DNA of 64,000 nucleotides from positions 1-64,000 of IMG/VR virus record IMGVR_UViG_3300028833_000068; one strand, given 5' to 3'. This document shows positions 1 to 27,220 of the stretch, piece after piece. Under the pieces are notes generated by a model. That model did no database searches. It saw only the letters and a program-made list of their open reading frames with translations, and was not told the DNA's origin. How positions within the stretch are numbered: the stretch's first letter is position 1; each line of letters starts with the position of its first letter. The stretch comes from a virus. Lineage: Duplodnaviria > Caudoviricetes. Both the position numbers and the translations under genes were made by a program.

Positions 1-201
1 TGGTCACTCCCCAGAGGAGTCCTTACACGCATCCATTTTTTTTATTTTGTTTAAACAGTACCTTACATTTAATTAAACTACCTTGACAGCAGTCATTGCA
101 AGTCCCATACCAAGGTAAAATACATTTTGTTCCTTTCCACCAAGTACAAATATTGCAAAGTTTTACGAGAAGTTGATTTATTTTTTTGTGGCTTTTTTGT
201 T

Positions 202-429
202 TCATAACTCTGTCTCCAATATATATTTTAATGGTTTTACGGCTTCGTTTGGGATTTGTTTGTTAAGATGTTTAATACGTTTGTCAATATATTTTCCATT
301 AGTAGAATCCTCTATAAATTGTTTCCCACCATTATACCATAATTTATAAATTTTATATTTCATTGTATTATTTATTCTAGTTTTATTAATCCCATTTCTA
401 ACATTTTGTGATGATTTGGGCATAACCAA
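202..429 (-). CDS. hypothetical protein (true start probably the internal Met near 363)
   Basis: ORF track; co-oriented with neighbours; overlaps the end of the HNH gene. Confidence 0.4.
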   Translation of the reverse strand: MVMPKSSQNVRNGINKTRINNTMKYKIYKLWYNGGKQFIEDSTNGKYIDKRIKHLNKQIPNEAVKPLKYILETEL

Positions 430-1106
430 ACTAAATTATTTTCATTATTTATCTCTCCAATTGTTGCATTACTATCGAACTCAAGAATACCTTTTAAATG
501 ATGTACTTCTAATATATCATCGAACTCATGATTATGGCAATATGCGCACACCCTTTCTCTTTTACTCTCTTCTATGGTTTTTCTAGCGTCTCTTCTTATG
601 TCACCACATTTGGTTGTAAGATATTTATGCCCATCAATATATGACCCAAGTGTTCTTTCTTTGATATTATTGCGTTTCTTTTTATCACTACATGTTTTAC
701 AGAGTTTAGAACCTTTGCGTTTTAACCCACCACATACAGGACATACCTCATAACCTTTTTTCTTTTTCTCTCCTAACCAAATGACATTACTAGCTTTACG
801 TTCTCTATGCCTATTATTATACTTCGCAGCACAAGAGTTATTGCAGAAGAAATGTTTGGTTTCACTTTTGTTATACTCACCCTTAAGTATTTTAAACTCT
901 TTACCGCATTCCTCACATTTAACAGTTATATATGAGTTTTCTTTATACCATTCTTTCTGACATTCTTGACAACAGAATTTAGGTAGTATATAACTATTTT
1001 TACTAAGTTCTCGCTTAGTCTTTGTGAACTTTTCCCCACAATGAGCACAGATAAATTCAAATTCATCTGTTGCTTTAGCTTTTTTAATTTCTTCGATATT
1101 ATACAT
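372..1106 (-). CDS. HNH homing endonuclease with N-terminal zinc-ribbon repeats
   Basis: Multiple CxxC pairs; C-terminal CAYC...LEVHHLK...NLVWLCPNHH HNH motif. Confidence 0.85.
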   Translation of the reverse strand: MYNIEEIKKAKATDEFEFICAHCGEKFTKTKRELSKNSYILPKFCCQECQKEWYKENSYITVKCEECGKEFKILKGEYNKSETKHFFCNNSCAAKYNNRHRERKASNVIWLGEKKKKGYEVCPVCGGLKRKGSKLCKTCSDKKKRNNIKERTLGSYIDGHKYLTTKCGDIRRDARKTIEESKRERVCAYCHNHEFDDILEVHHLKGILEFDSNATIGEINNENNLVWLCPNHHKMLEMGLIKLE

Positions 1107-1191
1107 AATTTATTATATTTACATATAAATATCTTCGAAAACCAAAAACTACGCTAAATTCATAGACTTTTTTCAAAAAACTTACATTTCG

Positions 1192-1268
1192 CAGCCCCTA
1201 TCGGATTCGAACCGACCTGTTTGAACACTGTGACAGAGTGACGGACACACCTAGCATCCCCAGAGGCT
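1192..1268 (-). tRNA. tRNA-Asp(GTC)
   Basis: Acceptor AGCCTCT/AGGGGCT, G73, loop CT-GTC-AC, T arm GTCGG TTCGAAT CCGAT. Confidence 0.85.
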
Positions 1269-1283
1269 ATTATTTTTTTTTTG

Positions 1284-1366
1284 AGACGAGGGTGAGATTT
1301 GAACTCACGTGCTTTTCAGCCAAAGGTTTTGCAGACCTAGGTAATTGACCACTCTACCACCTCGTC
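1284..1366 (-). tRNA. tRNA-Cys(GCA) with long variable arm
   Basis: GACGAGG/CCTCGTC, U73, loop CT-GCA-AA, variable hairpin GCT-GAAA-AGC. Confidence 0.9.
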
Positions 1367-1417
1367 ATCTCGTTATTAAAAAATCAAGAGTTGAACCAAC
1401 TTTTTTGAAATTTCAAG

Positions 1418-1490
1418 TGCGACAAGGCGACTCGAACGCTCCTCCTTCAGTTTTTCAGACTGACTTGCAGACCCCTTACACTATTGCCGC
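1418..1490 (-). tRNA. tRNA-Phe(GAA)
   Basis: GCGGCAA/TTGTCGC, TCAGT CT-GAA-AA ACTGA, TTCGAGT T loop. Confidence 0.85.
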
Positions 1491-1507
1491 ATTTTTATTC
1501 CCACATT

Positions 1508-1810
1508 TTATAACTTATCCAAATCATTAACAGTAGCTAACCATTCTTCATTTACATCATCCCAAAATTTACTTCCTTGCTTTGTTTTTCCCCAATTAAA
1601 TGCATGGACAATCCATTCTTTTGGTCTAAGCTCAGCTAACAAATATTTCAATGATAGTATTCCAAATTCCTCTTTAAATTGGTTATTTTTAGATTCTACA
1701 TTATCAATAAATGTTTTGTAAACTTTATATTCGATAAGAAATCTTTGAAAATGCCATTTATATCTTTTTATATCCATATACCATTTTATATTTTGTTGCA
1801 AATATACCAA
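1508..1810 (-). CDS. hypothetical protein
   Basis: ORF track; the annotated start overlaps a promoter motif, so the real start is probably the second Met. Confidence 0.65.
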   Translation of the reverse strand: MVYLQQNIKWYMDIKRYKWHFQRFLIEYKVYKTFIDNVESKNNQFKEEFGILSLKYLLAELRPKEWIVHAFNWGKTKQGSKFWDDVNEEWLATVNDLDKL

Positions 1811-1857
1811 ATTTATTTTAAATCTCCAAATTTATTTAGTTAATTAATCTTAAGCAC

Positions 1858-1902
1858 ATAAAAAAAGCTGCTAAAGACTTTTTTGGAGTTCTTCAACAGC
1901 TT
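1858..1902 (-). terminator. intrinsic terminator, part of a putative attenuator
   Basis: AAGCTGTTGAAGA...TCTTTAGCAGCTT hairpin followed by a U-run. Confidence 0.75.
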
Positions 1903-1950
1903 GGGAAATATATAGTGAAGTAAGTGCCTTCATTTTTTCACATTTTTATA

Positions 1951-2082
1951 CTACGTTTCTATATAGCCCTTAAGCTGCCCTCCAACTTTTGAGTTAGAAT
2001 TAAATACAACGGTATCACTCCATTTACAATCAGTAAATGAACTAGATGTTGTCTTGGCAATATTTTTAATCGTTGTATTCAT
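1951..2082 (-). CDS. putative 43-aa leader peptide (MNTTIKNIAKTTSSSFTDCKWSDTVVFNSNSKVGGQLKGYIET)
   Basis: Hand-translated ATG..TAG ORF whose 3' end is complementary to the downstream terminator's 5' strand. Confidence 0.6.
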   Translation of the reverse strand: MNTTIKNIAKTTSSSFTDCKWSDTVVFNSNSKVGGQLKGYIET

Positions 2083-2195
2083 AATTTAATAGTATTTAAA
2101 ATGTTTGTTTTTTACTTATAATTATATTACTAATCTCAAAAAGTTTTATTTTTTCGATATTTTTTTAAATTTTTTTTATTTTTTCTTGTTTACAA

Positions 2196-2229
2196 TGCAA
2201 AGATATATAAAATTTTCGAGAATTCCAAA
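2196..2229 (-). promoter_or_regulatory. Bacteroidota sigma-A type promoter (TTTG...TAnnTTTG)
   Basis: Minus strand TTTGGAA-N-TATATCTTTGCA; the same motif recurs near 1797, 3565, 7434, 11532, 15154, 15979, 20447, 22021, 23854, 29906, 33383, 36885 and on + near 40457-40490. Confidence 0.8.
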
Positions 2230-2250
2230 TTTTTAAGCAACTTTTTTTCA

Positions 2251-2607
2251 TTAAGCACTTAAAATTACTTCCCAGTCCTCATCAACTTCATTAACTTCTT
2301 CTACTTCCTCTTCGCAATCTGAATCGGTAATTGTTGCTAGATTATTGATAACCTTCTTTGTTCCAACCGCAACAGCATACAATCCACCAACTCCTCTTAA
2401 CTTAATTCGTCTATCACAAGTATATCCTTCAACAACTCCACTTGCCCAACACTTCTCACCAATTTGATTGAGATAACAAAAAGTAATGCCATCACCATCA
2501 ATTGCTTCATATTCCTTGGTTACAGTATTATATAATCTCTTATCCTTAATAACCAAACATCTCTCAACTATTTGGATTACCTTGGAGTTGTCAATTTCAA
2601 TAAACAT
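2251..2607 (-). CDS. hypothetical protein, acidic C-terminus
   Basis: ORF track. Confidence 0.7.
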   Translation of the reverse strand: MFIEIDNSKVIQIVERCLVIKDKRLYNTVTKEYEAIDGDGITFCYLNQIGEKCWASGVVEGYTCDRRIKLRGVGGLYAVAVGTKKVINNLATITDSDCEEEVEEVNEVDEDWEVILSA

Positions 2608-2631
2608 AACAATAATAGTTTTAAAAGTTTG

Positions 2632-2705
2632 TACACCCAGAGGGACTCAAACCCCCAATCTGATGGTTCGTGGCCACCTATTCTATTCAGTTGAACTATG
2701 GGTGC
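2632..2705 (-). tRNA. tRNA-Arg(ACG)
   Basis: GCACCCA/TGGGTGT, GGTGG CC-ACG-AA CCATC; C33; A19/U56. Confidence 0.9.
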
Positions 2706-2711
2706 AAGAAA

Positions 2712-2850
2712 GGAAGCGTAGGTTTATTATGACTATTTTCCTCTACATGGAGAACTGTTACTATTCTTCGCAGTAAAACGCATGTGGTACTTAGCCCTTT
2801 GCCTAGTTTCAGAGTAACATAAATTATTAATCCAACTGCTGTACGCTTCC
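2712..2850 (-). ncRNA. ACAGCA-stem element 1 (structured, non-tRNA cargo)
   Basis: GGAAGCGT-ACAGCAG...ACGCTTCC terminal stem. Confidence 0.7.
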
Positions 2851-2895
2851 GCTAAGAGTTCTATTTGAATTATGAAAAACACACTCAAATTAAAA

Positions 2896-3045
2896 AGGAA
2901 CGACCAATTTTATGTCTTGGCTCGACATTCGCTCCTAAGAGCATAAGCAAGTGCCTCGCAAATATGATTTAACGCTTCTCTTGCTTTCATTTACTGAATC
3001 TAATACAAATGTTTTAAAATAAAGTAAATGTTGCTGTACGTTCCT
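2896..3045 (-). ncRNA. ACAGCA-stem element 2
   Basis: AGGAACG-T-ACAGCAA...CGTTCCT terminal stem; internal CATTTACT/AGTAAATG stem. Confidence 0.7.
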
Positions 3046-3175
3046 ACTGATGCAGCTAGGCGCAACTGGGCTTCCTAGATACACCTTGTGATACCGCTTT
3101 AAACCTCGTGAGCCATTGTTAATGCGCACACGCTCGACTTCCACGAGTATTTACGTCTTTGGTTTATTGCGGTTG

Positions 3176-3249
3176 TGATGAGGGAGGGACTCGAACCCTC
3201 AACCTACAGCTTAGAAGGCTGTTGCTCTGTCCAATTGAGCTACCCCACC
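3176..3249 (-). tRNA. tRNA-Arg(TCT)
   Basis: Canonical cloverleaf, ACAGC CT-TCT-AA GCTGT. Confidence 0.95.
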
Positions 3250-3250
3250 A

Positions 3251-3406
3251 TTATTTCAACGTTTTATCTTTCTTCTCGTCATAGTCATCCCATAGGAATG
3301 GTTCTTTTTCATCAACAATTGGTGCGTGTTTGATTTCATATAGGAATATAGAAATTCCTAATCCCATCATAATGCCAAGTACAATTGCAATAATTTTAAG
3401 AATCAT
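3251..3406 (-). CDS. small single-pass membrane protein (51 aa)
   Basis: Hand-translated MILKIIAIVLGIMMGLGISIFLYEIKHAP...; below the ORF-track cutoff. Confidence 0.6.
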   Translation of the reverse strand: MILKIIAIVLGIMMGLGISIFLYEIKHAPIVDEKEPFLWDDYDEKKDKTLK

Positions 3407-3409
3407 AAC

Positions 3410-3562
3410 TTATTGTTTTTTAAATTCCTTTTCAATTTCTCCATCAAATACCTTTCTATTGTATTCATGAGACTTTTTTTCTTTGGAATTAATCTTACCA
3501 ATCAGTACAATAATGACACCTAGTAAGAAACATATTATCATAAACAATATTAACCTTCCCAT
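3410..3562 (-). CDS. small single-pass membrane protein (50 aa)
   Basis: Hand-translated MGRLILFMIICFLLGVIIVLIGKINSK...; directly downstream of a promoter motif. Confidence 0.55.
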   Translation of the reverse strand: MGRLILFMIICFLLGVIIVLIGKINSKEKKSHEYNRKVFDGEIEKEFKKQ

Positions 3563-3630
3563 AATGCAAATATACCAAAAAATTTTTTAATAACCAAATT
3601 TATTAAGACTTTTTAAGAAAATAATTTGTG

Positions 3631-3718
3631 TGCCCTAGGTAGGACTCAAACCTACACGCTACTATTATTTCGCACTAGATTCTAATTCTAGGATGTCTAT
3701 CAATTCCACCACTAGGGC
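3631..3718 (-). tRNA. tRNA-Leu(TAG)
   Basis: GCCCTAG/CTAGGGC, A73, CTAGA AT-TAG-AA TCTAG, long variable region. Confidence 0.9.
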
Positions 3719-3724
3719 ATTTTC

Positions 3725-3875
3725 GGAAACATTTAATATTCTAATTGCCGTGTTTAGCCACTCCACCACCACATGTTTAATGATTAAGTTGTCATGTGGG
3801 TAGGATTCGAACCTACGAAACCGTTACGGTTAGCAATTCCCTTTTGAACATTTTTATCAATTGCTGTACGTTTCC
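3725..3875 (-). ncRNA. ACAGCA-stem element 3: circularly permuted type-II tRNA-like (YrlA-like)
   Basis: GGAAACGT-ACAGCAA...ATGTTTCC; order is V arm, T arm (GTAGG TTCGAAT CCTAC), CCACATG-linker-CATGTGG, D arm. Confidence 0.85.
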
Positions 3876-3878
3876 TTA

Positions 3879-3960
3879 TGGTAGTGAAGGGGGGACTTGA
3901 ACCCCCATACACCAATTACGGCTTTAACGACTGTATATAAGACAGGACCGATACATCACT
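3879..3960 (-). tRNA. non-canonical tRNA-Ile(TAT)-like, D arm displaced, CCA encoded
   Basis: AGTGATG/CTTCACT-A-CCA, CTGT CT-TAT-AT ACAG, GGGGG TTCAAGT CCCCC; no normal D hairpin. Confidence 0.75.
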
Positions 3961-4168
3961 AGTTTAAAATATTGTTATTCCAATATGGATAATTCTTCTT
4001 TTCAGATTCTGGTGTATCAATAAGTTCATACCTTGCTCCGCAATAAGGACAATGTGCGTTTGTAACCATTGCATCATCGTCTTCTGAAAGTTCTTCCCCA
4101 TTAATTTCGCTTAACATGAAATTTGATTCAAGAATCAAATCATGTTTACATCGCATACATTTTTCCAT
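3959..4168 (-). CDS. small zinc-ribbon protein
   Basis: CxxC...CPYCG. Confidence 0.75.
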   Translation of the reverse strand: MEKCMRCKHDLILESNFMLSEINGEELSEDDDAMVTNAHCPYCGARYELIDTPESEKKNYPYWNNNILN

Positions 4169-4189
4169 ATTGTTAAGTTTTAATTTTAA

Positions 4190-4211
4190 GGGGAACTACG
4201 AAGAGTTCCCC
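4190..4211 (-). terminator. hairpin / putative terminator
   Basis: GGGGAACT-N6-AGTTCCCC after the membrane-protein gene. Confidence 0.55.
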
Positions 4212-4220
4212 ATTTTATTT

Positions 4221-4550
4221 TTATTCGGTTTTCTTTGGTAGGAATATTGGCAAGTTATCGATGAAATTCTTAATGAAAGGAATATCATAGATACCATTAC
4301 TTGCAAGTCCCACTACTGCACAAAGGCAAATCAATGCTAGCCATACTGGTTCTCCAATACATGTAATCAAGCCAAGGAAATAACCTCCTACGGTTAGTGC
4401 AGAACCTGTAATCCATGCGACAAGCTGTGGCCAAAATCCTTCTGTAATGTTAAATTTTCCGTTAATTGCTCCTGCAATCGTAACAGTCAATGAAGCAAGA
4501 ATTGGTGCAAAATACCAAAATGCCTCAGTAAATAATGCTGTTGTAATCAT
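4221..4550 (-). CDS. small multi-pass membrane protein, holin-like
   Basis: About 3 hydrophobic segments, GLASNGIYD motif, basic C-terminus. Confidence 0.6.
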   Translation of the reverse strand: MITTALFTEAFWYFAPILASLTVTIAGAINGKFNITEGFWPQLVAWITGSALTVGGYFLGLITCIGEPVWLALICLCAVVGLASNGIYDIPFIKNFIDNLPIFLPKKTE

Positions 4551-4591
4551 AAATTAGGTTTTTAGTTTTAGTTATTTTAAAAAGTATTTTG

Positions 4592-4663
4592 AGACGATGA
4601 CCAGAATCGAACTGGCGTCCTTTGCATGGCAAGCAAACGCACTAGCCACTGTGCTACACCGTC
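4592..4663 (-). tRNA. tRNA-Gly(GCC)
   Basis: GACGGTG/CATCGTC, U73, TTTGC TT-GCC-AT GCAAA. Confidence 0.9.
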
Positions 4664-4724
4664 AATTAATATCTCTTCCTATTATCCTTTAATGTGTGTC
4701 GAAACACTAATTATTTTCTAAAAG

Positions 4725-4797
4725 AGCGTCATAACAGATTCGAACTGTCTCCTAAACCTTGGAGGGGTCTCATGCTACCATTGAACACCAATGACGC
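4725..4797 (-). tRNA. tRNA-Gly(TCC)
   Basis: GCGTCAT/ATGACGC, U73, AGACC CC-TCC-AA GGTTT; C33. Confidence 0.9.
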
Positions 4798-5006
4798 AAG
4801 TAACTAACTTCGTGATAAATGCCTTAAATAGCGTTTATCTGGTTTGGTATTAGTCTTGAGCTGTTTACCTATTCGCAGCAACCGTTTGTCTAGTCATCTA
4901 GAAGACAAAGGAGAATGTAGACGATTTTGATGACTGACAAACTTGCGGTTTTTTCGCATTAACACCGCCAAAGCTTAAGTCTTATTCTCCTAAATGTTGT
5001 TAATGT

Positions 5007-6023
5007 TTACTGTGCCATTGTAACCTTTGCAGCACGACCTTGTACCTTGTCTACGCCCTTACCTACTGCACTAGCAACTCTAACACCACGATTAACGCTA
5101 AGATATTCAGCAACGGTCTTTGCACGGTCTTCAGAAAGCTTCTGATTAAACTCAGCAGTACCATCCTCAGATGCAGTACCTACAACATCAACGATTGCGT
5201 CATTACCAATGCTATTAAGAATAGTCTTTGCCTCATTACTGAGTTCTGAACTAGCGGTTGCAAATGTAACAATCCATTCTGTGTTATTTACGAATACAGT
5301 AGCGGTATTAGGCTGCGTAATGTGTCTCTCAACAATAACCTCAGTTGGCTTCTTTGCAAGTTCCTCATTCAAACGATTAATCTCGTTCATCATTGCACCA
5401 ACATCATAAGTCTTGAAATGACGTGTACCATTAGAGGTCTTGAAGTGATACTTATAAGTTACCATCAAGCTAAGATTTGCATTGTTGTGGTTAAACTGTA
5501 AGGCACTGCCGTTCTTAAGTCCCCAATAGATTGCTGGAGTCAATACAACTGAATGCTGCTTAGTCTTACCAAAATTAACTGCAAAATCGAAACCAGTCTT
5601 TGCAACAAGGTCATTTCCGCTATGGTCAAAACCATGACGTGCTCCAATACCTAGTACAGCAGATGTCTCAAATGCACGAGGTGTACCCTTATAGCCCAAG
5701 AAGATGTTAGGAAGGTTAAAAGCACCATTCAAGCCAAGACTAATAGACCTAAAGGCAGTCTTTACATCACCAAAATGGTTGTCACCAAGGCTTGTCAAAA
5801 CCTCAAGCTGTGCATCTAACCAAGGAGTGATACCCTTTGTACCAACAAGACCGAAAGTTGTGTTTACTGGGAACACGCTATTCATGTCAAGAGGTGAAGT
5901 TACACCTACGGTTGCTCCAAGGCTAATGTTGTCGAGAACCTTGCTGTTCTCAGTTGCAATCTGTGCATTCGCACCCATCACTACGGCACTAAACAGTGCC
6001 AACATTAAAATCAATTTCTTCAT
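5007..6023 (-). CDS. OmpA-family outer membrane protein
   Basis: Signal peptide, alternating beta-strand region, C-terminal OmpA-like motif GTASEDG...NQKLSEDRAKTVAEYL. Confidence 0.85.
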   Translation of the reverse strand: MKKLILMLALFSAVVMGANAQIATENSKVLDNISLGATVGVTSPLDMNSVFPVNTTFGLVGTKGITPWLDAQLEVLTSLGDNHFGDVKTAFRSISLGLNGAFNLPNIFLGYKGTPRAFETSAVLGIGARHGFDHSGNDLVAKTGFDFAVNFGKTKQHSVVLTPAIYWGLKNGSALQFNHNNANLSLMVTYKYHFKTSNGTRHFKTYDVGAMMNEINRLNEELAKKPTEVIVERHITQPNTATVFVNNTEWIVTFATASSELSNEAKTILNSIGNDAIVDVVGTASEDGTAEFNQKLSEDRAKTVAEYLSVNRGVRVASAVGKGVDKVQGRAAKVTMAQ

Positions 6024-6063
6024 AACAATTTTTTTTTAATTTAATTTTGTTTTTAATTTGTTA

Positions 6064-6372
6064 TTAGAAGGGGAGGTCATCAAGCTCCTTTGCTATTCTG
6101 AGTCTCCACCTATATGTATAATATTTTACGTTAAATTTATAACTAATCTTAAATGACGGTATGTTAACATTAATACCCTTACGTTCAAATGTCTTGACTA
6201 TTAAATCAAAAGCATCTGAACAGTATGGATATGTTGTTTCCACATTAAGCTCTAGTGGTTCTTCATCATCCATCACATTCTTGTTTATACAATCTTGAAT
6301 GTTCCTTATGAAAAATAAACAATACCTAGGAAAATCAATATCCTTTTTTGTTATTTTCTTATATTCAGCCAT
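6064..6372 (-). CDS. hypothetical protein
   Basis: ORF track; DDLPF C-terminus. Confidence 0.7.
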   Translation of the reverse strand: MAEYKKITKKDIDFPRYCLFFIRNIQDCINKNVMDDEEPLELNVETTYPYCSDAFDLIVKTFERKGINVNIPSFKISYKFNVKYYTYRWRLRIAKELDDLPF

Positions 6373-6388
6373 AAATTCTATAAAAAAC

Positions 6389-6491
6389 GGATGCTCTTTT
6401 TGTTTGCTAAACCACTAAGCGACTTTGCCAAACGGCAAGGGTTGGAATCGAACCAACGTAGAAACAGAAGTTTCCATTGCTGTAAGCATCC
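6389..6491 (-). ncRNA. ACAGCA-stem element 4: YrlA-like T-acceptor-D module
   Basis: GGATGCTT-ACAGCAA...GAGCATCC; GTTGG TTCGATT CCAAC, CCTTGCC-GTTT-GGCAAAG, GCTTAGTGGTTTAGC. Confidence 0.85.
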
Positions 6492-6496
6492 TTGTG

Positions 6497-6644
6497 TGGA
6501 CTGTATTGGATTCGAACCAATGTTGCCGATTAGCCGCTTCACATTACATATGAAACATCATTATGTTAATCACCATAATGTGCAAAGGGGTCTCTCCTTT
6601 GTTCCTCCAAGTGCTTCGCTGCATTCCAACTTACTGAACAGTCC
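6497..6644 (-). ncRNA. 148-nt tRNA-like RNA (acceptor and T arm, large internal insert)
   Basis: GGACTGT/ACAGTCC-A, ATTGG TTCGAAT CCAAT; no canonical anticodon arm. Confidence 0.7.
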
Positions 6645-6751
6645 ATTTAATTTATTTTATAAAGAGTTATAGAAACTTATAAAAGCATCTATTTTCTCTT
6701 TCATCATTTCCTTCCCTTTTTCATTGTTTATTTGATTCCATGATAAATTGT

Positions 6752-7123
6752 TTAATACTGTTGTTTGCTTGGAATAACACCCCTTACACCACCACGAGGA
6801 TTATCACAGTCTCCATCGTATCTTGGGATAATGTGGATATGACAGTGTTTAACTGTTTGCCCAGCACTATCCCCACAGTTAGTACCGATGTTATAACCAG
6901 TAGGATGAAACTTATCATCCAGTATCTTTTTCACATCATTCAGTCTAAAACTCAATGATTCCCTCAGCCTATCTGGTAGGTCAAAGAAGGTTTCGTGATG
7001 CTCCTTCGGAATGAGTAGCGTATGTCCAGGGGTTACAGGATAACCATCGTAAACGGCAACCCACTCTGTAGTCTCAAACAGAATTCTACTCTTATCAATA
7101 TTACAAAAAATACAATTATCCAT
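6752..7123 (-). CDS. HIT family nucleotide hydrolase
   Basis: CIFC N-terminus, PGHTLLIPK, GQTVKHCHIHIIPR histidine triad. Confidence 0.95.
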   Translation of the reverse strand: MDNCIFCNIDKSRILFETTEWVAVYDGYPVTPGHTLLIPKEHHETFFDLPDRLRESLSFRLNDVKKILDDKFHPTGYNIGTNCGDSAGQTVKHCHIHIIPRYDGDCDNPRGGVRGVIPSKQQY

Positions 7124-7221
7124 ACTCTAATTTACCGTTTGGGTATTTGTTGAAAAACTCTGTTATAATGTCTCTTATCTCGTCACACATACCTTCTCTT
7201 CCTTCGTATGTGATTTTCTTG

Positions 7222-7297
7222 TGGCACAGACCCGACTCGAACGGGCACAATCCACTTCCCAAAAGTGGGCGGGTACCAATTACCGTTATACTGCGCC
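7222..7297 (-). tRNA. tRNA-Pro(TGG)
   Basis: GGCGCAG/CTGTGCC, CCACT TT-TGG-GA AGTGG, GCCCG TTCGAGT CGGGT. Confidence 0.85.
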
Positions 7298-7305
7298 AAT
7301 TATTC

Positions 7306-7424
7306 GGAAACATCTATCCACTTAGCTATCACGCCAATCTTGGTAGCGTGAGTTGGACTTGAACCAACGACCTTAAAATCCCGAATTTTATACTATATCA
7401 TTTTTTAACTTGCTGTGTGTTTCC
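7306..7424 (-). ncRNA. ACAGCA-stem element 5: circularly permuted tRNA-Pro(CGG)-like
   Basis: GGAAACAC-ACAGCAA...ATGTTTCC; TAAAA TT-CGG-GA TTTTA, AGGTC, T arm, TCACGCT-A-CCA, linker, GGCGTGA, D arm. Confidence 0.85.
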
Positions 7425-7478
7425 TTGTACTTTTGCAAAGATATATAAAATATTTTAAATTTCCAAATTTTTGACGTT

Positions 7479-8423
7479 TTATTTTTCGTTTATGTCTATT
7501 TTTGCAATAAGTGGATAATGGTCTGATGATGTTATATTAGTATCAAAAGAACATTCTTTCAATGACAATTGATATTTTGACTTATCATTATTAACATAGA
7601 ACAACTTATCACAATCTGAATGATTTGTTGGGATTGCTTCTTGAATATTTAATCCATTTATATTATTAATGGCATTAATCAAATTATCTTGAATGTTTGT
7701 TTTATCCCATTCATACTTATCGTAAGTATTTGTGTCACCAAATATGATAATTGGGTTATATGATTTGGCTTTATCTATATATTCCACCAATTGTTTTAAC
7801 TGTGATTCTCTTGCTTCCAAATCTCCAGATATATTTGGACATTTTTCTGCATCATAAAAATCAGCATCCATGTGTAACATATACACATCCAATGGAATTT
7901 CGTTATCTATAACGGTAGTATAATATCTAAATCCTTTATGAGTTAATGCATCATTAGCATGCGTAAAGTACCCATAGCACTTTTTCCATCGTTTAATGTC
8001 TTCTGTTTTTTGAATGACATCAATTCTATTTTTCTTAGCAATGATATTAATACCATCACATTTAAATCTAGGCAATGGAAAATAAGTTAGCCATTCTGTA
8101 TTTGAAAATAACTTTGAAAGGTCAAATCCTCCTGTATATTTGCCACAAGAATAATTATCTTTCAATGATGACATTAATTCATCATGATAATTAAAGTCTT
8201 CTTGAACTCCTATAATATCTGCCTCAGAGGATGATAGATATTTGCTTATGTTTTCAATATCTTCTTTCTTATTTCCATTGTCATTAATTGAAATAATTGT
8301 TGTTCCTTTAAATAACTTATATATCCAAGCAATTGGTTTCAATATCCAAGGAAGGTCATTTAAATCCAATTCACTTGGCAAACCATCAATATTATAGGTT
8401 ATTAGCTTAATTGTTTTATCCAT
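7479..8423 (-). CDS. endonuclease/exonuclease/phosphatase (EEP) family protein
   Basis: ITYNIDG, DIIGVQED, GDTN, SDHYP motifs. Confidence 0.9.
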   Translation of the reverse strand: MDKTIKLITYNIDGLPSELDLNDLPWILKPIAWIYKLFKGTTIISINDNGNKKEDIENISKYLSSSEADIIGVQEDFNYHDELMSSLKDNYSCGKYTGGFDLSKLFSNTEWLTYFPLPRFKCDGINIIAKKNRIDVIQKTEDIKRWKKCYGYFTHANDALTHKGFRYYTTVIDNEIPLDVYMLHMDADFYDAEKCPNISGDLEARESQLKQLVEYIDKAKSYNPIIIFGDTNTYDKYEWDKTNIQDNLINAINNINGLNIQEAIPTNHSDCDKLFYVNNDKSKYQLSLKECSFDTNITSSDHYPLIAKIDINEK

Positions 8424-8463
8424 TTAATCTATTGTTCCTTCTTCTATTAGTTTTACCTTGTAT

Positions 8464-8501
8464 TTGACATACTCTCACGCCTAAAGGCATTGGGCTTTCT
8501 T
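8464..8501. mobile_element. possible orphan IS200/IS605-family end hairpin
   Basis: CTCTCACGCCTAAAGGCATTGGGCTTTCT resembles IS605/IS1341-type subterminal palindromes; no transposase nearby. Confidence 0.4.
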
Positions 8502-8551
8502 GGGAAATTTTTCGTAACTTTTTCATAACAAATTACAGTATTAATCATTTG

Positions 8552-8635
8552 GGTGATATGTTGGATTCGAACCAACGTGAGCTTTCGCTACCAGGACCAC
8601 AATCTGGCGTCATCGGCCTCTAGACGAATATCACC
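8552..8635 (-). tRNA. tRNA-His(GTG) with G-1 and long variable arm
   Basis: G-GTGATAT/ATATCAC-C73, CCAGA TT-GTG-GT CCTGG, AGC-GAAA-GCT variable hairpin. Confidence 0.9.
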
Positions 8636-8832
8636 ATATTAAAAACGAACAGTAGTATATGCCATTACGAGCAGATACCATTACTAGTTACTATCAATTG
8701 CCTCAGCATATCGTCATCATTTTTACAGTACTACTATTATATGACTATTGTTTGCCTACTTCCTATCAAGTCTGTTCTTCTGTGTAGACTTCCCTACATT
8801 GCACGAAGCGGTGACTACAATCCCCCAATGCG

Positions 8833-8917
8833 TGGACTGTATGGGACTCGAACCCATCGTTCTGTATGGTCTTCGTGCGCCTAACCGACCAGCGTTTCCC
8901 TACCACATTGACAGCCC
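8833..8917 (-). ncRNA. tRNA-like RNA with G3:U70 (Ala-type) acceptor, no canonical D or anticodon arm
   Basis: GGGCTGT/ACAGTCC-A, ATGGG TTCGAGT CCCAT, TGGTC/GACCA stem with a 15-nt loop. Confidence 0.7.
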
Positions 8918-8929
8918 ATGTTAAAAAAC

Positions 8930-9045
8930 GGAATCATTAAAACTAAGGTGGTGCAGGATTCGAACCTACGTTCTCTTGGTAAAATCCAAGGCTTTAGTCC
9001 ACTAAGCTAACCGTCTGAAGTTTATATCAATTGCTGTTAGATTCC
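8930..9045 (-). ncRNA. ACAGCA-stem element 6: whole tRNA body (UUU-like loop) inside the scaffold
   Basis: GGAATCTA-ACAGCAA...ATGATTCC; GCTT AGTGGACTA AAGC, CTTGG ATTTTA CCAAG, GTAGG TTCGAAT CCTGC. Confidence 0.8.
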
Positions 9046-9051
9046 TTTTTG

Positions 9052-9134
9052 TCAGGTGGGTAGGATTCAAACCTACGAACTTCTGCTATATCAACACGGC
9101 TATATTTGCAGAACAATGATGCCGTTTCCACCTG
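9052..9134 (-). ncRNA. non-canonical tRNA-like RNA
   Basis: CAGGTGG/CCACCTG-A, GTAGG TTTGAAT CCTAC; TTCTGC/GCAGAA stem; ACGGC/GCCGT possible pseudoknot. Confidence 0.7.
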
Positions 9135-9139
9135 TTTTG

Positions 9140-9212
9140 TCTAGATGAAAGGACTCGAACCTTCGACCACAGCATCCCAAATGCCGCATTCTACCTACTG
9201 AACTACACCTAG
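9140..9212 (-). tRNA. tRNA-Pro(TGG)
   Basis: CTAGGTG/CATCTAG, CGGCA TT-TGG-GA TGCTG. Confidence 0.92.
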
Positions 9213-9325
9213 ATTTGTGCCACCATAGATAATACTCTAGAATTCTTGCATTATATCCTCTATAGTCTTATGCTGCTCTTAGAGAGGTTGCCTAAAGACT
9301 CATATTACTATGAATGAGCACTTTG

Positions 9326-9419
9326 TGGGAAGGGAGGGATTCGAACCCCCCTACTGCGAGACCAATACGCCCATTTGTTAATGCAGGACTGATTTACAGT
9401 CAGTTGACGTTACCTTCCC
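9326..9419 (-). tRNA. non-canonical tRNA-Tyr(GTA), D arm displaced
   Basis: GGGAAGG/CCTTCCC-A, ACTGA CT-GTA-AA TCAGT, GGGGG TTCGAAT CCCTC; only 8 nt between acceptor and anticodon arm. Confidence 0.8.
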
Positions 9420-9421
9420 TT

Positions 9422-9485
9422 TAAGCATAGGTTTCCTAACCACAATCCTTTCGAATTGACCACAGTGATGAGCTGTGTATGCTTA
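9422..9485 (-). ncRNA. small RNA carrying a CAT anticodon arm
   Basis: TAAGCATA/TATGCTTA closing stem, CACAG CT-CAT-CA CTGTG, GAAA tetraloop hairpin. Confidence 0.55.
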
Positions 9486-9486
9486 T

Positions 9487-9681
9487 TTAATCAAATGCAA
9501 TATAATGAAAATACAATGCCATTTTTTTAATTAATATATCCTCATCTATATCTTCTTTCTGAGGATACTTTCCTAGATATTGTTTTACCACTCTTTCATT
9601 TGCTTGTATGGTTGAGAATCCGAATTTATTCTCTTCCACCATTTTATTATATTTTTCTGTTAATCCTTTTACGTTAATCAT
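9487..9681 (-). CDS. hypothetical protein
   Basis: ORF track. Confidence 0.6.
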   Translation of the reverse strand: MINVKGLTEKYNKMVEENKFGFSTIQANERVVKQYLGKYPQKEDIDEDILIKKMALYFHYIAFD

Positions 9682-9684
9682 TTC

Positions 9685-9727
9685 ACTTAAACTTCCCTAA
9701 TCTTATTCCCTCTACGAGGTAATCATA
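9685..9727. repeat. 43-bp direct repeat, copy 1 (copy 2 at 10107-10149)
   Basis: acttaaactt(c/t)cctaatcttattccctctacgaggtaatcata, one mismatch. Confidence 0.9.
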
Positions 9728-9731
9728 TACC

Positions 9732-10088
9732 TCACTTATATTTAAATTCAATTATAAACACATTTTTATCTCTTCTATCGAATCTTGTTATGTTAAGGTT
9801 CTCAATACGTCCTTTCTCTTCATCGAGTCTGAATCCATCCTCAAATGAGCGATACACTTCTAGCTCTTTTGGATTCTGCGTGACAATACAAATCACCTTT
9901 TGCAATGAGTTATCTTCCGTATGACAGAACATTGCCCTCATACCCCTAAAGTTATTGTTTATAGCAATACCTCCGCTTGTAACGAGTCCTAATGCAAACT
10001 CTTCCCAAATAGGAATATCACACTCTAAATAAATACCCATACCGCAAGGGTCTTTGGCATTCAGATGTTCTTTCGTAATTACTTCCAT
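9732..10088 (-). CDS. hypothetical protein flanked by direct repeats
   Basis: ORF track. Confidence 0.7.
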   Translation of the reverse strand: MEVITKEHLNAKDPCGMGIYLECDIPIWEEFALGLVTSGGIAINNNFRGMRAMFCHTEDNSLQKVICIVTQNPKELEVYRSFEDGFRLDEEKGRIENLNITRFDRRDKNVFIIEFKYK

Positions 10089-10104
10089 ATAGCTTTATTT
10101 TAAA

Positions 10105-10542
10105 TTACTTAAACTTTCCTAATCTTATTCCCTCTACGAGGTAATCATACGTTATTTTCCAATCTGTTTCAGCATCAAAGCCAAACTTATCATCTATTCC
10201 CACATTGAAATAAGTTTTTTCTGTAAAGTCTGAGAGGTCAGTATTTCCAGTTTCTGAATTGATATTGACCATATCAAACTTTATGCCATTATTCTTGAAA
10301 AACTCAAGATATTCCTTGATGGCATTCTTATGAGTTGATGACCACAATATGAGTGATATTTGTTGTGCGTGTGACATGATGTCAAGTGTTTCCTTGGCAT
10401 ATGGAAACCATTCATGAGTTTCCTCATTATGGTAGCATGCCTTAAGGATTGTATCGTGAATATCCACGAGCACATATATCTTTTCCCAATTGCGTTCTTT
10501 CATTCTTTTGAAAGCTGCATCAAAACTCTTTTCTATATTCAT
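10105..10542 (-). CDS. HAD-superfamily phosphatase-like protein
   Basis: VDIHDTI motif I, LILWSS, GIDDK. Confidence 0.75.
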   Translation of the reverse strand: MNIEKSFDAAFKRMKERNWEKIYVLVDIHDTILKACYHNEETHEWFPYAKETLDIMSHAQQISLILWSSTHKNAIKEYLEFFKNNGIKFDMVNINSETGNTDLSDFTEKTYFNVGIDDKFGFDAETDWKITYDYLVEGIRLGKFK

Positions 10543-10745
10543 AACTATAATTGTATGTTATTAAAATAAAGGAGAGTAGTATCTAATTAAGTAAATCTCT
10601 AGAGTCGTTAAAGACATAATACAATCTATCATTTACCTTCGACCAATCGGCATCAAGATATACATCTTAATAAGACTTGCTCTCCAACAAGGCTTACCTA
10701 GTTTGAGTGTTGCTTGGCAACTCTCAGGGACTAATAAGCTCCATG

Positions 10746-10817
10746 TTGAGGCTGAATGAATCGAACATTCATAATGAGGACCAGAATCTCATGTAATAAC
10801 CATTATACGAAGCCTCA
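10746..10817 (-). tRNA. tRNA-Gln(CTG)
   Basis: TGAGGCT/AGCCTCA, TGAGA TT-CTG-GT CCTCA. Confidence 0.9.
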
Positions 10818-10824
10818 AGTTTAA

Positions 10825-10886
10825 GGGAACATTTTTAACTTATCCAAATTTGCAGTTCGATGTTAAATACATTGCTGTATGTTCCC
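10825..10886 (-). ncRNA. ACAGCA-stem element 7: minimal scaffold presenting a Cys(GCA) anticodon arm
   Basis: GGGAACAT-ACAGCAA...ATGTTCCC; TTAAC/GTTAA; TCGAA CT-GCA-AA TTTGG. Confidence 0.8.
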
Positions 10887-10992
10887 ACTATTTGATAGCA
10901 GGGTTGCTAGATTTCACTCAAATGACTTTACACATTAAACGTATCTGCATGCACTGTCCGTTCTTGAGACTGTCCTAGTACTTTCTGCTTTG

Positions 10993-11083
10993 TATTGGGT
11001 AGGGGATTCGAACCCCTGAAGAGTCTCGTAAAACTCTTACAAGATTGAAAGTCTTGCTACTTAAACCACTCGTACAACCCAAC
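10993..11083 (-). tRNA. tRNA with Glu(TTC) anticodon on a type-II (long variable arm) body
   Basis: GTTGGGT/ACCCAAT-A, CAAGA CT-TTC-AA TCTTG, AAGAGTTT-TACG-AGACTCTT variable stem. Confidence 0.85.
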
Positions 11084-11236
11084 ATTTGTAAAAAGGTCAG
11101 AGCACCATAGATAGTCTCGTTATTACGATTCGGATTTACACTATCCTCTGATAGAGGCACTATTCGTTTCCAAGTGAGTCATGTTGTACACCATGCGTCT
11201 CGAAACCTAACTATCATCCTCGAATGATGACCTTTG

Positions 11237-11310
11237 TAGCGTTAGCGAGACTCAAACTCGCAATCTCCACCTTGAGGGGGTGGCGGCTTAATCAGTTCGC
11301 CTATAACGCC
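11237..11310 (-). tRNA. tRNA-Glu(CTC)
   Basis: GGCGTTA/TAACGCT, CCACC CC-CTC-AA GGTGG; C33; A19/U56. Confidence 0.9.
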
Positions 11311-11315
11311 ATATT

Positions 11316-11504
11316 TTATATTGCACTTGGCATTTTGCGAATATCCATCGCTTCTGCCTTTCTCATTTCTTTGCAATACTTCTCTATTTCTATTCCTTCA
11401 TCATACCCAAGTCTATATGCCTTAGATATTGCATCATGAACTTTCGAAAAGTTCTTCCATTTTTCAAGAAGTTCTTGGTACTCTTTATAATTCTTACTTT
11501 CCAT
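11316..11504 (-). CDS. hypothetical protein
   Basis: ORF track; directly downstream of a promoter motif. Confidence 0.65.
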   Translation of the reverse strand: MESKNYKEYQELLEKWKNFSKVHDAISKAYRLGYDEGIEIEKYCKEMRKAEAMDIRKMPSAI

Positions 11505-11856
11505 GTTTTATTGCATTTATATGTTTCACGATGCAAAGATATGAAAAATTTTTGAAATAACCAAATTTTTAGCCAACTTTTAACAAAATTAAACAGTTTA
11601 AGGGTGAACATTCTGTAGATTGTTCACCCAATACATTATATATAATACCATGAAAAAGTCTGATATACTATAATAATATGATGATGTAAATCTACACTTA
11701 ACCTATGTACATACCTCTATGGCTTGGATATTCATACCCAAGCTCACGTGGCTGTTCTATATGTAGGTTAAATGTAATCATAATATTATTAATGCTATTT
11801 TATTATAAATATAATGTATTATCAAAAAAAAATCAATAAAACGATGAAAAAAAGTT

Positions 11857-12306
11857 TTAACTTCTTGCAGCAGCTTCTTTTTCTTCTCTTTCTTTTTCAA
11901 GAATTTCTCTCCATTTATTGGTAAATTCTTGAAAGATGTCAGTACCCTTTGCGATACCATAAACCTCCTTTGTCCATCCAAAGATTGATGTTCCAGTACT
12001 ACCAATCTTAAACCAAAGTTCTCCAGTATGGCTTGCGTCTGAGATTTCCCACACTTGATGCACCATTGGCCAAGATTCTCCATTTTCGCCACGCAACACA
12101 CAGAAAACTGCATCACCGCGTTTAACATCAATTGGAACACAAGGTCGAACTAGACAATATTCACGATTGCGGATTAAAGGAGATAGACTATCCCCGAATT
12201 CCCAATGATAGAATGATTCACCGTTTTTTAAGGCTTGTTCCATTTCATATGGGTCTTGAATGACCCTCAGCCCATCAATTGTTTCAGGTTCGTTTACTAT
12301 TCTCAT
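11857..12306 (-). CDS. S24/S26 peptidase-like protein
   Basis: FGDSLSPLI...VKRGDAVF...MVHQV resembles the signal-peptidase/LexA-type fold. Confidence 0.6.
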   Translation of the reverse strand: MRIVNEPETIDGLRVIQDPYEMEQALKNGESFYHWEFGDSLSPLIRNREYCLVRPCVPIDVKRGDAVFCVLRGENGESWPMVHQVWEISDASHTGELWFKIGSTGTSIFGWTKEVYGIAKGTDIFQEFTNKWREILEKEREEKEAAARS

Positions 12307-12322
12307 AATTTATTTTAATTTT

Positions 12323-13819
12323 TTATAATTTAAACATATTAAACAACGTTGAATTACTTAAATTTTTAGATATTCTTTTATCAATATTTATTCCAATTTC
12401 TCTTGACATTTGTGATAGGTCTTTTGACAGTTTACTTAGAGAAGTATCTAGAGAATCGAAATAGATGTCTAGTCCATCCATATATAAGTTAAGTGAACTA
12501 AGTCCGTTTTCCATATTAAAGTTTGGAAATTTTGGGAACTGTGGAACATCAATGTGGTAGTTTTTCATTCTAGCCACAGCTTCCTCAGTTCTTCTTCTTT
12601 GTTCCCTAATGCGTTTTTCTTCCTCTGCAATACGCTTCTTAGTTTCAGCTTCTTCCCTAGCTATTCTTTCAAGTCTAGCTTGTTCTTTCTTAGCCTTTTC
12701 AAGTTCATATTCCTCTACGGTATATGTTCCCAATTCATCCCAAGAGATTGAGAAATGGTCATTTGGGTTAAATCCTTCTAGAAACATCTTTGGAACACCG
12801 CTATACCCATCAATAGAAGATTCAAGAGTTGTTCTCTCTGCTAACGTAATCAATACATATACAGTATCATCATTTGAAATGAAATTACCGTGATTATATT
12901 TTAGAGTCTTTGGATATACCAATTTAATGTTTAATGGTGTTCTTTCTGGCTTTGCAAACTGCTGTCCTCTTTCGTCTCTATAGTAGACGATTGGTTCATT
13001 ACTGATAATCCTTAATGTTTGTGCAAATCTATCTTCCTTAATAAGTCTGCCACTAGGAGTTACCACAAAACCATTTTCATAGTCCTTGAATCCATCAAGT
13101 CTCAATAGAATATATCTAATGGTATTATCAACATCACTTAATGGAGATGTACCTAAGTCAGCCTTATTGAATGGAACGATTTCCTTTACCCTTTTCCAAT
13201 TAAGGTGTTTTGGAAACAACTGTAGCCCCTTTTCATATTCGATGCCAATATGGTCACAATCGTTTTTGGACAAGGTAAATATCTTATCTTGGTCTCCACT
13301 AATTTGTTTGACAATCAATGAATTGAGAGCGATGCCATCAAATTCATCGTGTAATGCCACAAGTTTATACACCTTTTCTGGCATTTCAAACCCCTCACAA
13401 GATACTCCCCTTAGTGCATAATTTTCGCCAACAATGAAATTTGGCATTGAGTCCTTTGACTCTTCGATTACCCCCATATCACTAAAGTCAACCGCCTCAA
13501 ACATTTCCTTTGGAAGTGTGAAACGGTTCTCAACCTTTCTATTATCTGTTCGATATGTTGGATTATGTCTTGTCACTTTTGTTGCAGAGTTATAATCAGC
13601 ATTAACCATGTCTGCAATACTTTCGAATATTGCTTGTGCAACACTTGGTTTATTCCTCATAGGGGTGAAATCTAATTTAAAGTTAATATTATTTGCGTTA
13701 TCCTCTTTGATAATGATATTCCCTTCATTATCAGTAATAACATGTGAAAATTCCAAGTGAGGGACTTTCCTCACTTGGGACTTTGGTCTTGGAATATTAG
13801 GAGGTGTTACCTTTCCCAT
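12323..13819 (-). CDS. hypothetical protein with C-terminal coiled coil
   Basis: 498-aa ORF directly downstream of the TelA-like gene. Confidence 0.8.
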   Translation of the reverse strand: MGKVTPPNIPRPKSQVRKVPHLEFSHVITDNEGNIIIKEDNANNINFKLDFTPMRNKPSVAQAIFESIADMVNADYNSATKVTRHNPTYRTDNRKVENRFTLPKEMFEAVDFSDMGVIEESKDSMPNFIVGENYALRGVSCEGFEMPEKVYKLVALHDEFDGIALNSLIVKQISGDQDKIFTLSKNDCDHIGIEYEKGLQLFPKHLNWKRVKEIVPFNKADLGTSPLSDVDNTIRYILLRLDGFKDYENGFVVTPSGRLIKEDRFAQTLRIISNEPIVYYRDERGQQFAKPERTPLNIKLVYPKTLKYNHGNFISNDDTVYVLITLAERTTLESSIDGYSGVPKMFLEGFNPNDHFSISWDELGTYTVEEYELEKAKKEQARLERIAREEAETKKRIAEEEKRIREQRRRTEEAVARMKNYHIDVPQFPKFPNFNMENGLSSLNLYMDGLDIYFDSLDTSLSKLSKDLSQMSREIGINIDKRISKNLSNSTLFNMFKL

Positions 13820-13821
13820 TA

Positions 13822-26614: not shown

Positions 26615-27220
26615 TTAGTATCTTCTATGCCCATTCTTCTTAAATCTTTCTTCTGCTTCAGCACGTCTTTTCTTAACCATCTCACGATATGCCTCTCTAT
26701 CAACTTTCTTAACTTCTTGTTCCTTAATATATATTTCAATCAATTCTTCATCTCTAGATTTCTGAAAATAGTCATATATGGTTAAATCAAGGTCAGTTAT
26801 ACAATTGTTGAATATCTCTAGAATTTTATCCCTATCTCCATTACCGTCAAATCTACTTGCCCCTAGTAATGTACAAGCAACTCTCTTGCCTTTATATAAA
26901 ATATTAACAAGTTTCAAACATTTTTCAAGAGATTCATATGAAAGATAGTCTTTTTGTAAATCTGGTCTAAAATTACCCTTCACTATGAAGCACAAGCAGA
27001 ATGTTGGTTCATTATCTGAAGTACATTCCAACACAGTCCCCAATTTGTTGGAATCTCCATATTTAGTTTCAAGATTTTTATTATAAACATACGGATAATT
27101 AAGCATTACTTTCAGTTGAATACCTTGCCCCATACTATGGTACAAATTAGTACCAACTAATGTGACATCATATTCACTAAAATGGTCATATAAATCTACA
27201 TCTTTTATTACATTAATCAT
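26615..27220 (-). CDS. macro-domain (ADP-ribose) protein
   Basis: DL..., GTN...MGQGI, YESLEKCL, LGASRFDGNGD resemble Poa1p-like macrodomains. Confidence 0.65.
   Translation of the reverse strand: MINVIKDVDLYDHFSEYDVTLVGTNLYHSMGQGIQLKVMLNYPYVYNKNLETKYGDSNKLGTVLECTSDNEPTFCLCFIVKGNFRPDLQKDYLSYESLEKCLKLVNILYKGKRVACTLLGASRFDGNGDRDKILEIFNNCITDLDLTIYDYFQKSRDEELIEIYIKEQEVKKVDREAYREMVKKRRAEAEERFKKNGHRRY

Follow-up and report, generated by a model that had tools for sequence, protein, structure and literature searches.

The first 64,000 nucleotides (hereafter the window) of the 171,411-bp IMG/VR virus record IMGVR_UViG_3300028833_000068 (Caudoviricetes; 34% G+C) carry a minus-strand array of transfer RNA (tRNA) and tRNA-like genes at positions 1–11400. 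One of these, at 3879–3960, encodes a putative tRNA-Ile with anticodon UAU in which the two strands of the D stem lie on either side of the anticodon arm. An earlier note on this DNA had described CGGT before the anticodon arm as pairing with GCCG after it, and reading of the minus strand finds that description exact, the pairs being C-G, G-C, G-C and U.G. We consider it almost certain that the gene is a real, conserved member of a class of such rewired tRNA genes. Its parts, listed 5' to 3' in the RNA after the entry for the whole gene, are:

3879–3960 (minus): whole gene, rewired tRNA-Ile(UAU), 79 nt plus a templated CCA, 82 bases in all
3954–3960 (minus): acceptor stem 5' strand, AGTGATG, pairing with 3883–3889 at six of seven positions
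3951–3953 (minus): U8, A9, then a U opposite U13 (equivalent of position 22); UAU in the sequence
3947–3950 (minus): CGG(U), equivalent of the D stem 3' strand (23–25, then 26), pairing with 3919–3922 and abutting the anticodon stem
3930–3946 (minus): anticodon arm CCUGU / CUUAUAU / ACAGU with a 7-nt loop; anticodon UAU at 3937–3939
3923–3929 (minus): CGUUAAA, a subclass-specific linker or bulge leading from the anticodon stem to the returning strand of the D stem
3919–3922 (minus): (G)CCG, equivalent of the D stem 5' strand (10–12), partner of 3947–3950
3911–3918 (minus): D-loop motif UAAUUGGU, comprising U13, A14, A15, U, U, G18, G19 and U20; read from the sequence as TAATTGGT, directly 3' of GCCG
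3907–3910 (minus): GUAU, connecting D loop and T stem, its final U taken as U48
3890–3906 (minus): T arm GGGGG / UUCAAGU / CCCCC with a canonical T loop
3883–3889 (minus): acceptor stem 3' strand, CUUCACU, pairing with 3954–3960
3879–3882 (minus): discriminator A73 at 3882 and templated CCA at 3879–3881

Standard tRNA parts are thus present, namely a 7-bp acceptor stem, a 5-bp T stem with a UUCRANY loop, a 7-nt anticodon loop with U33 and R37, and a discriminator followed by CCA. A D hairpin, which would normally follow position 9, is missing, and only 7 nt (UAUCGGU) separate the acceptor stem from the anticodon stem. A canonical cloverleaf was considered and set aside, there being nothing 3' of TAATTGG, in the gene or its relatives, able to pair back as a local D hairpin. 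The anatomy, the conservation, a covarying long-range helix of D type and the kept residues U8, A14, A15/U48, G18G19, U33 and A37 are all directly observed, as detailed below.

The design is widespread. A blastn search of the element against GenBank phages returned matches in unannotated DNA of Salmonella phage SSBI34 (Vequintavirinae) and of the crAss-like phage cr130_1, both with the same order of parts; the former has anticodon UCU with CTC/GAG around the anticodon arm, the latter UAU with CCC/GGG. A motif scan of IMG/VR (TAATTKG, a gap of 5–11 nt, then a T arm) yielded at least 119 loci, and about half of the matches listed have the rewired design, following the order TA(T) / X / anticodon arm / linker / X' / TAATTGG / ..AT / T arm. 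The anticodons among the class members listed are only UAU, GAU, CAU, UCU, UCG, ACG, CCU and GCG. UAU was found in 24 sequences of a class tally of 71, a tally that took in three ordinary tRNAs, and ordinary tRNA-Ile(UAU) genes occur in other phage loci, which contradicts an earlier description of this anticodon as rare. Across 40 aligned members, U8, A9, C32, U33, A37, the UAAUUGG after the returning strand, the A-U before the T stem and the T loop are invariant or nearly so; T8, A9, U33, A37 and the TAA, TT and GG of the motif are strictly invariant, with C32 and the A-U before the T stem falling just short. For the U opposite U13, columns 10 and 40 hold U.U in 60 of the 71 tallied sequences and A-U in five. 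Members of the main subclass have AGAAA as the linker. The subclass of the window gene has CGTTAAA or CATTAAC in its place and combines this 7-nt CGTTAAA-type linker with a 5-nt spacer from GG to the T stem.

Covariation of the pairings, named beforehand in the earlier note as a test of the proposal, is evident in every helix. When 17 sequences of the AGAAA subclass, this gene and its near relatives excluded, were aligned with MAFFT alone, all four helices held, and the helix spanning the anticodon arm is 100% paired at each of its three pairs with changes on both sides at every one (for example CG in 10 sequences, AU in four, GC in two and UA in one). The covariation score of the whole structure in this alignment is 0.846, against 0.203 when shuffled and at most 0.145 with slid partners. 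Over 45 distinct sequences aligned to the covariance model R1 described below, pairing in the spanning helix is 96% and each of its three pairs shows double changes (pair 12/86: CG 16, GC 15, UA 8, AU 4), the acceptor helix is 96% paired with covariation, the T helix is 98% paired and the anticodon stem covaries. The MAFFT result is the stronger of the two because the larger alignment was fitted to its model. Covariation of the Levitt pair 15-48 is too limited to count, with 68 A/U, one G/C and two A/C combinations among the 71 tallied sequences.

Orthologs give the same picture at closer range. Contigs L105 and L107 are syntenic with the window and both hold the orthologous gene, which in L105 is 96.6% identical, compared with 66–75% for the neighbouring DNA. 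In L107, CGT/ACG replaces CGG/CCG and the acceptor stem is wholly different yet fully paired; other relatives carry CAG/CTG (L052) or CGC/GCG (L004) in the spanning helix.

Standard tools pass over the gene. ARAGORN makes no call on 3879–3960, as either tRNA or transfer-messenger RNA (tmRNA), and calls only one of 73 class members. An Rfam scan of positions 1–14000 gave no match to the tRNA family RF00005 over the gene at E ≤ 10 (gathering threshold 29 bits), while the ordinary tRNAs of the array score 38–72 bits. The sole Rfam echo within the gene is a 15.2-bit match to tmRNA (RF00023) covering the acceptor and T arm only; a tmRNA identity was rejected, given the gathering score of 47 and the lack of an ARAGORN tmRNA call. 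Also rejected was YrlA (RF02553), to which there is no match, the gene's ends forming an acceptor stem with a free ACCA and an anticodon loop being present. A D-armless tRNA of mitochondrial type fits poorly, since AAUUGG with its invariant GG is kept downstream. The covariance model R1, built from the MAFFT alignment of 17 AGAAA-subclass sequences and thus excluding this gene and its near relatives, scores the gene at 57.9 bits (E 2.6e-13) and the ordinary tRNAs of the window at no more than 21 bits. Because the model was trained without the gene, a score of this size indicates that the gene is not a chance assembly. No second strong R1 member was found in the record of this phage.

We posit that the rewired RNA would reach the usual tRNA shape by a different path of the chain. 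The block of positions 10–21, comprising the 5' D-stem strand and the D loop, has moved to a place after the anticodon arm, inside what would otherwise be the variable loop, with only the 3' D-stem strand remaining before the anticodon arm. The chain therefore runs 1–7, U8, A9, [22–25], 26, anticodon arm, linker, [10–13], 14–21, 2–3 nt, U48, T arm, 66–73 and CCA. The long-range helix may stack on the anticodon stem as an ordinary D stem does, and contacts U8-A14, A15-U48 and those of G18G19 with the T loop would restore the L shape. In ordinary tRNA, 9-12-23, 45-10-25 and 46-13-22 form base triples, and 8-14-21 and 15-48 form layers. Because of these established contacts, the three new junctions (9 to 22, 45 to 10, and 21 to 46–48) would link residues that are adjacent in ordinary tRNA, and thus the L shape could be kept. 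RNase P and 3' nucleases would release the RNA from the minus-strand array transcript.

Whether such an RNA serves translation is a separate question, and we think it probable that the gene product accepts isoleucine and decodes AUA on the ribosome. Readers of AUA include tRNA-Ile2 with lysidine-modified CAU and the tRNA-Ile(UAU) of Mycoplasma mobile and many phages. The combination of UAU, A73 and A37 in the window gene fits an AUA-reading tRNA-Ile, which might do so without the need for lysidine (TilS). Of 28 Arg members, 27 have A at position 20, directly after GG, and of 40 Ile/Met members, 38 have U there (Fisher 2.6e-17, uncorrected for phylogeny); A20 is the main determinant for ArgRS in E. 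coli. At N73, every one of the 37 Ile members that has a letter carries A. A templated CCA follows the discriminator in 28 of 67 distinct members, with C74 in 64 and A76 in 54, and the C74-N-A76 3' end is under selection in the class. Taken together, the patterns at position 20, A73 and C74 suggest a chargeable tRNA. Rewired and ordinary genes for the same anticodon also avoid each other in one case: none of 10 loci with a rewired UCU gene has an ordinary UCU tRNA, against 35 of 71 (p 0.004).

A need for such a tRNA is apparent in the phage itself. In 110 long open reading frames (ORFs) of the phage, AUA occurs 26 times per 1000 codons and accounts for 34% of those for Ile, and a default ARAGORN run over the whole 171-kb record listed no tRNA-Ile. 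Only a relaxed run that allowed introns made two weak calls for Ile, one AAU and the other GAU with a 53-nt intron, and both were judged spurious. No gene of IleRS or TilS type was found in the 171 kb, so that host IleRS would have to charge the RNA. No other free-standing tRNA in the array ends in a templated CCA, as the earlier note had recognised. Most of the ordinary array tRNAs (Arg, Gly, Pro, His, Tyr and others; 1191–11310, minus strand) have C-A-A after the discriminator, in keeping with the C74-N-A76 of the class.

A number of observations weigh against a translational role. The correlations at positions 20 and 73 could partly reflect two clades instead of selection. The test of mutual avoidance applied to UAU gave one of 14 against nine of 67 and has no power, and rewired GAU genes stand beside ordinary GAU genes in six of 12 cases. 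Anticodon type did not follow the expected trend with locus GC content: UCU and CGN readers did not differ (p 0.9), and UAU loci are richer in GC than GAU loci. The record is about 53% complete according to CheckV, and another tRNA-Ile may therefore exist. An unmodified U34 would also read AUG. Within the gene there are mismatches at U6.U67 in the acceptor stem and C27.U43 in the anticodon stem, and a single-sequence fold has a minimum free energy of −18.2 kcal/mol (z −0.49), no better than shuffles, with the acceptor misfolded. Finally, YrlA-like tRNA mimics adjoin the gene, which makes a non-translational role conceivable.

The last point bears on the alternative that deserves most attention, a conserved mimic of tRNA that the ribosome does not use, even though it is processed and perhaps charged. 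Such an RNA might act as a decoy or competitor for host nucleases that target tRNA or for tRNA-binding factors, or as a ligand of the phage's own Ro60-like/YrlA system, and we give this possibility a limited though appreciable chance. A non-cloverleaf core is without proven precedent on bacterial ribosomes (PMC11551756). A permuted tRNA-like RNA of YrlA type (3725–3875) lies 4 nt downstream of the gene, the window encodes a DUF2828/DUF7788 protein, and rewired GAU genes frequently coexist with ordinary ones. Pointing the other way, the acceptor end is open and carries A73 and CCA, unlike that of YrlA, and C74-N-A76 is selected. U33 and A37 are kept while the anticodon ranges over eight triplets of Ile, Arg and Met type with matching N20 and N73, none of which a decoy for a single enzyme needs, and the UCU members replace ordinary UCU tRNAs instead of accompanying them.

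A further alternative accepts a working tRNA but folds it as the D-armless type known from mitochondria, the spanning helix becoming an extension of the anticodon stem and UAAUUGG a long variable loop. The RNA does make a three-way junction on paper, and the bulge of 5–8 nt after the anticodon stem exceeds what the geometry proposed above needs; but A14, A15, G18 and G19 are invariant in the 40 aligned members and the presumed U48 is nearly so, the sole member with G15 (L026) has C48, and position 20 behaves like the ArgRS determinant A20, all of which make this fold improbable. A decayed or rearranged pseudogene without function would account for the rejection by gene finders, the two stem mismatches and the missing fold-energy signal, and is the least credible explanation by far. 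The gene is conserved at 97% between flanks at 66–75% in a relative, the same design occurs in unrelated phage families, and the divergence of the stems excludes the homologues being recent copies of one sequence. Conservation of orthologs together with compensated stems excludes decay, and the compensation of every helix over 45 distinct sequences effectively refutes it; the proposal of the earlier note that the displaced D arm marks a structural class and not decay therefore holds. An isoleucine tRNA that reads AUA remains our preferred interpretation.

The earlier note had also assigned the same architecture to a tRNA-Tyr gene of the array:

9326–9419 (minus): rewired tRNA-Tyr(GUA), with the D strand and D loop inside a long variable arm (pseudoknot)

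The principle is indeed shared, and the Tyr version is just as conserved. In the Tyr gene, the strand ahead of the anticodon arm is ACGUC; its partner is GGCGU, with AUUGG next in line, and this block lies within the variable arm CUGC/GCAG. The joint model suggested in the earlier note failed, however: on the Ile/Arg model the Tyr gene reaches 23.2 bits and ordinary tRNAs about 20, and because of this failure to unite the types the Tyr type was tested on its own relatives. A scan with a Tyr-type motif gave ten IMG/VR loci, all of the same design and providing eight distinct relatives. In nine distinct sequences the five helices are 98–100% paired, with double changes in the long-range helix and in the crossing stem of the variable arm. 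The 344,746-bp record of loci L004 and L254 holds rewired Tyr and rewired Ile(UAU) genes together, as does the window. A full TyrRS gene shares the genome with the rewired tRNA-Tyr.

Other features of the array and its surroundings include further unusual tRNA-like genes and several protein genes:

3725–3875 (minus): permuted tRNA-like RNA of YrlA topology, 4 bases downstream of the Ile gene, in the order anticodon-type stem GCAATT, long variable arm, T arm, acceptor 3' strand CCACATG-A, 16-nt linker, acceptor 5' strand CATGTGG, D arm, GCAATT
6381–6480: weak Rfam match to YrlA, elsewhere in the array (31.7 bits against 69)
10992–11083 (minus): tRNA-Glu(UUC), 92 nt, with a long extra arm atypical for its family
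8551–8634 (minus): tRNA-His, 84 nt, likewise
1283–1366 (minus): tRNA-Cys, 84 nt, likewise
8830–8917 and 7219–7297 (minus): perfect 7-bp acceptor stems and T arms, not called by ARAGORN, the latter with a UGG-type loop
8945–9016 (minus): ARAGORN "tRNA-???" with a two-base anticodon
3959–4168 (minus): 69-aa ORF with two CxxC pairs, zinc-ribbon-like, without a Pfam match; its stop codon overlaps the first two bases of the Ile gene
20509–21810 (minus): full TyrRS
22136–23815 (minus): DUF2828/DUF7788 protein
27220–28299 (minus): DnaJ
31078–32991 (minus): Hsp70/DnaK

Beyond the window, the Arg form of the class is common in cultured-phage records of GenBank. The Arg-type element of SSBI34, used as a 98-base query, matches 251 GenBank phage records, with coverage of at least 80% in 88, and the phages matched include Felix O1-like, rV5-like, phi92-like, Klebsiella and Rak2-like phages. 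The annotation under the match in 40 of the 251 records was nothing in 29, coding or 'unknown function' in three and 'tRNA-OTHER' in one, the other seven being records without any annotation. The Felix O1-like Escherichia phage Alf5 has the element within its tRNA array, just before an HNH endonuclease gene, and the record lists 19 annotated tRNAs, none of them for Arg. In both SSBI34 (L001 3086–3445) and Alf5 (L247 5944–6291), the rewired tRNA-Arg is followed, at a distance of no more than about 25 nt, by the start of an HNH gene. No endonuclease flanks the window Ile gene, the nearest HNH gene being at 372–1106. The acceptor pairing in SSBI34 (L001 2978–3068) reaches 13 bp, TTTAGCGCGGGTG with CACCCGCGCTAAA, leader and trailer pairing beyond the mature ends.

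A pattern scan of prokaryote genomes yielded about 13 true members among 120 matches, in contigs of metagenome-assembled or draft genomes with phage-like tRNA arrays, the rest being mostly chance matches in coding DNA. The one such locus inspected had transglycosylase/endolysin-like and NUDIX matches and no hallmark gene, and we therefore do not claim that the class is confined to phages. A family of tRNA-Ile(UAU) of 90–92 nt was also noted, with a normal D arm (GTTT-AATGGTA-AAAC), an invariant GCAACAGATAATTGG in a 22-nt variable region and templated ACCA; ARAGORN calls it tRNA-Ile(TAT), and it is found at L012 (about 4945–5040, plus strand), L013, L015, L025, L027, L048–L050 and some 20 more IMG/VR loci. 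One possibility is that this family is an intermediate, formed by duplication, on the way to the rewired design, but it may equally be unrelated to that path.

Compared with canonical tRNA-Ile, the window gene shares the 7-bp acceptor stem, T arm, 7-nt anticodon loop with U33 and A37, A73 and CCA, the D-loop residues A14, A15 and G18G19, a length of about 77–79 nt and the setting in a phage tRNA array, and differs in that its 5' D strand and D loop follow the anticodon arm. Metazoan mt-tRNA-Ser(AGY) and other mitochondrial D-armless tRNAs likewise lack a D hairpin and form a three-way junction on paper; they have no G18G19 or elbow contacts and work with adapted mitochondrial factors, whereas the window gene keeps all D-arm parts in a new order and in a bacterial setting. 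YrlA (RF02553) and the permuted tRNA genes of Cyanidioschyzon also have tRNA parts in non-standard gene order. In YrlA, however, a loop closes the acceptor and the anticodon stem opens to form the Ro-binding stem, and in the alga processing undoes the permutation, while the internal permutation of the window gene, with its normal acceptor termini, would persist in the mature RNA. The allo-tRNAs, with acceptor/T branches of 8/4 or 9/3, are another natural departure from the cloverleaf in bacteria and phages, altering stem lengths and keeping the order of arms, the reverse of what is seen here (PMC5389517).

No description of this wiring was found in the full-text literature, although most subscription journals lay outside the search and its absence is unproven. 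In a 2020 review of non-canonical tRNAs (PMC7609411), the search counted the word "phage" not once. Textbooks present all bacterial tRNAs as cloverleaves. The same view, that every tRNA used in bacteria is a cloverleaf, has been stated explicitly (PMC11551756). The bolder proposition, that a natural non-cloverleaf tRNA works on bacterial ribosomes and that its rewiring is adaptive, we put forward as speculative and rather unlikely. Under it, the L shape presented to synthetases, elongation factor EF-Tu and the ribosome would be kept while the gene sequence and backbone path are altered, a change that might evade homing endonucleases that cut tRNA genes or host defence nucleases that cleave tRNA.

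If the translational interpretation is true, nature reaches the L-shaped fold by another chain topology, which would also offer a ready-made scaffold for orthogonal tRNAs. Standard finders would under-count the tRNAs of phages, including Felix O1-like and rV5-like model phages, and analyses of phage codon supply would need revising. For the phage studied here, in which one isoleucine codon in three is AUA, the gene would be the only supply of a decoder for it.
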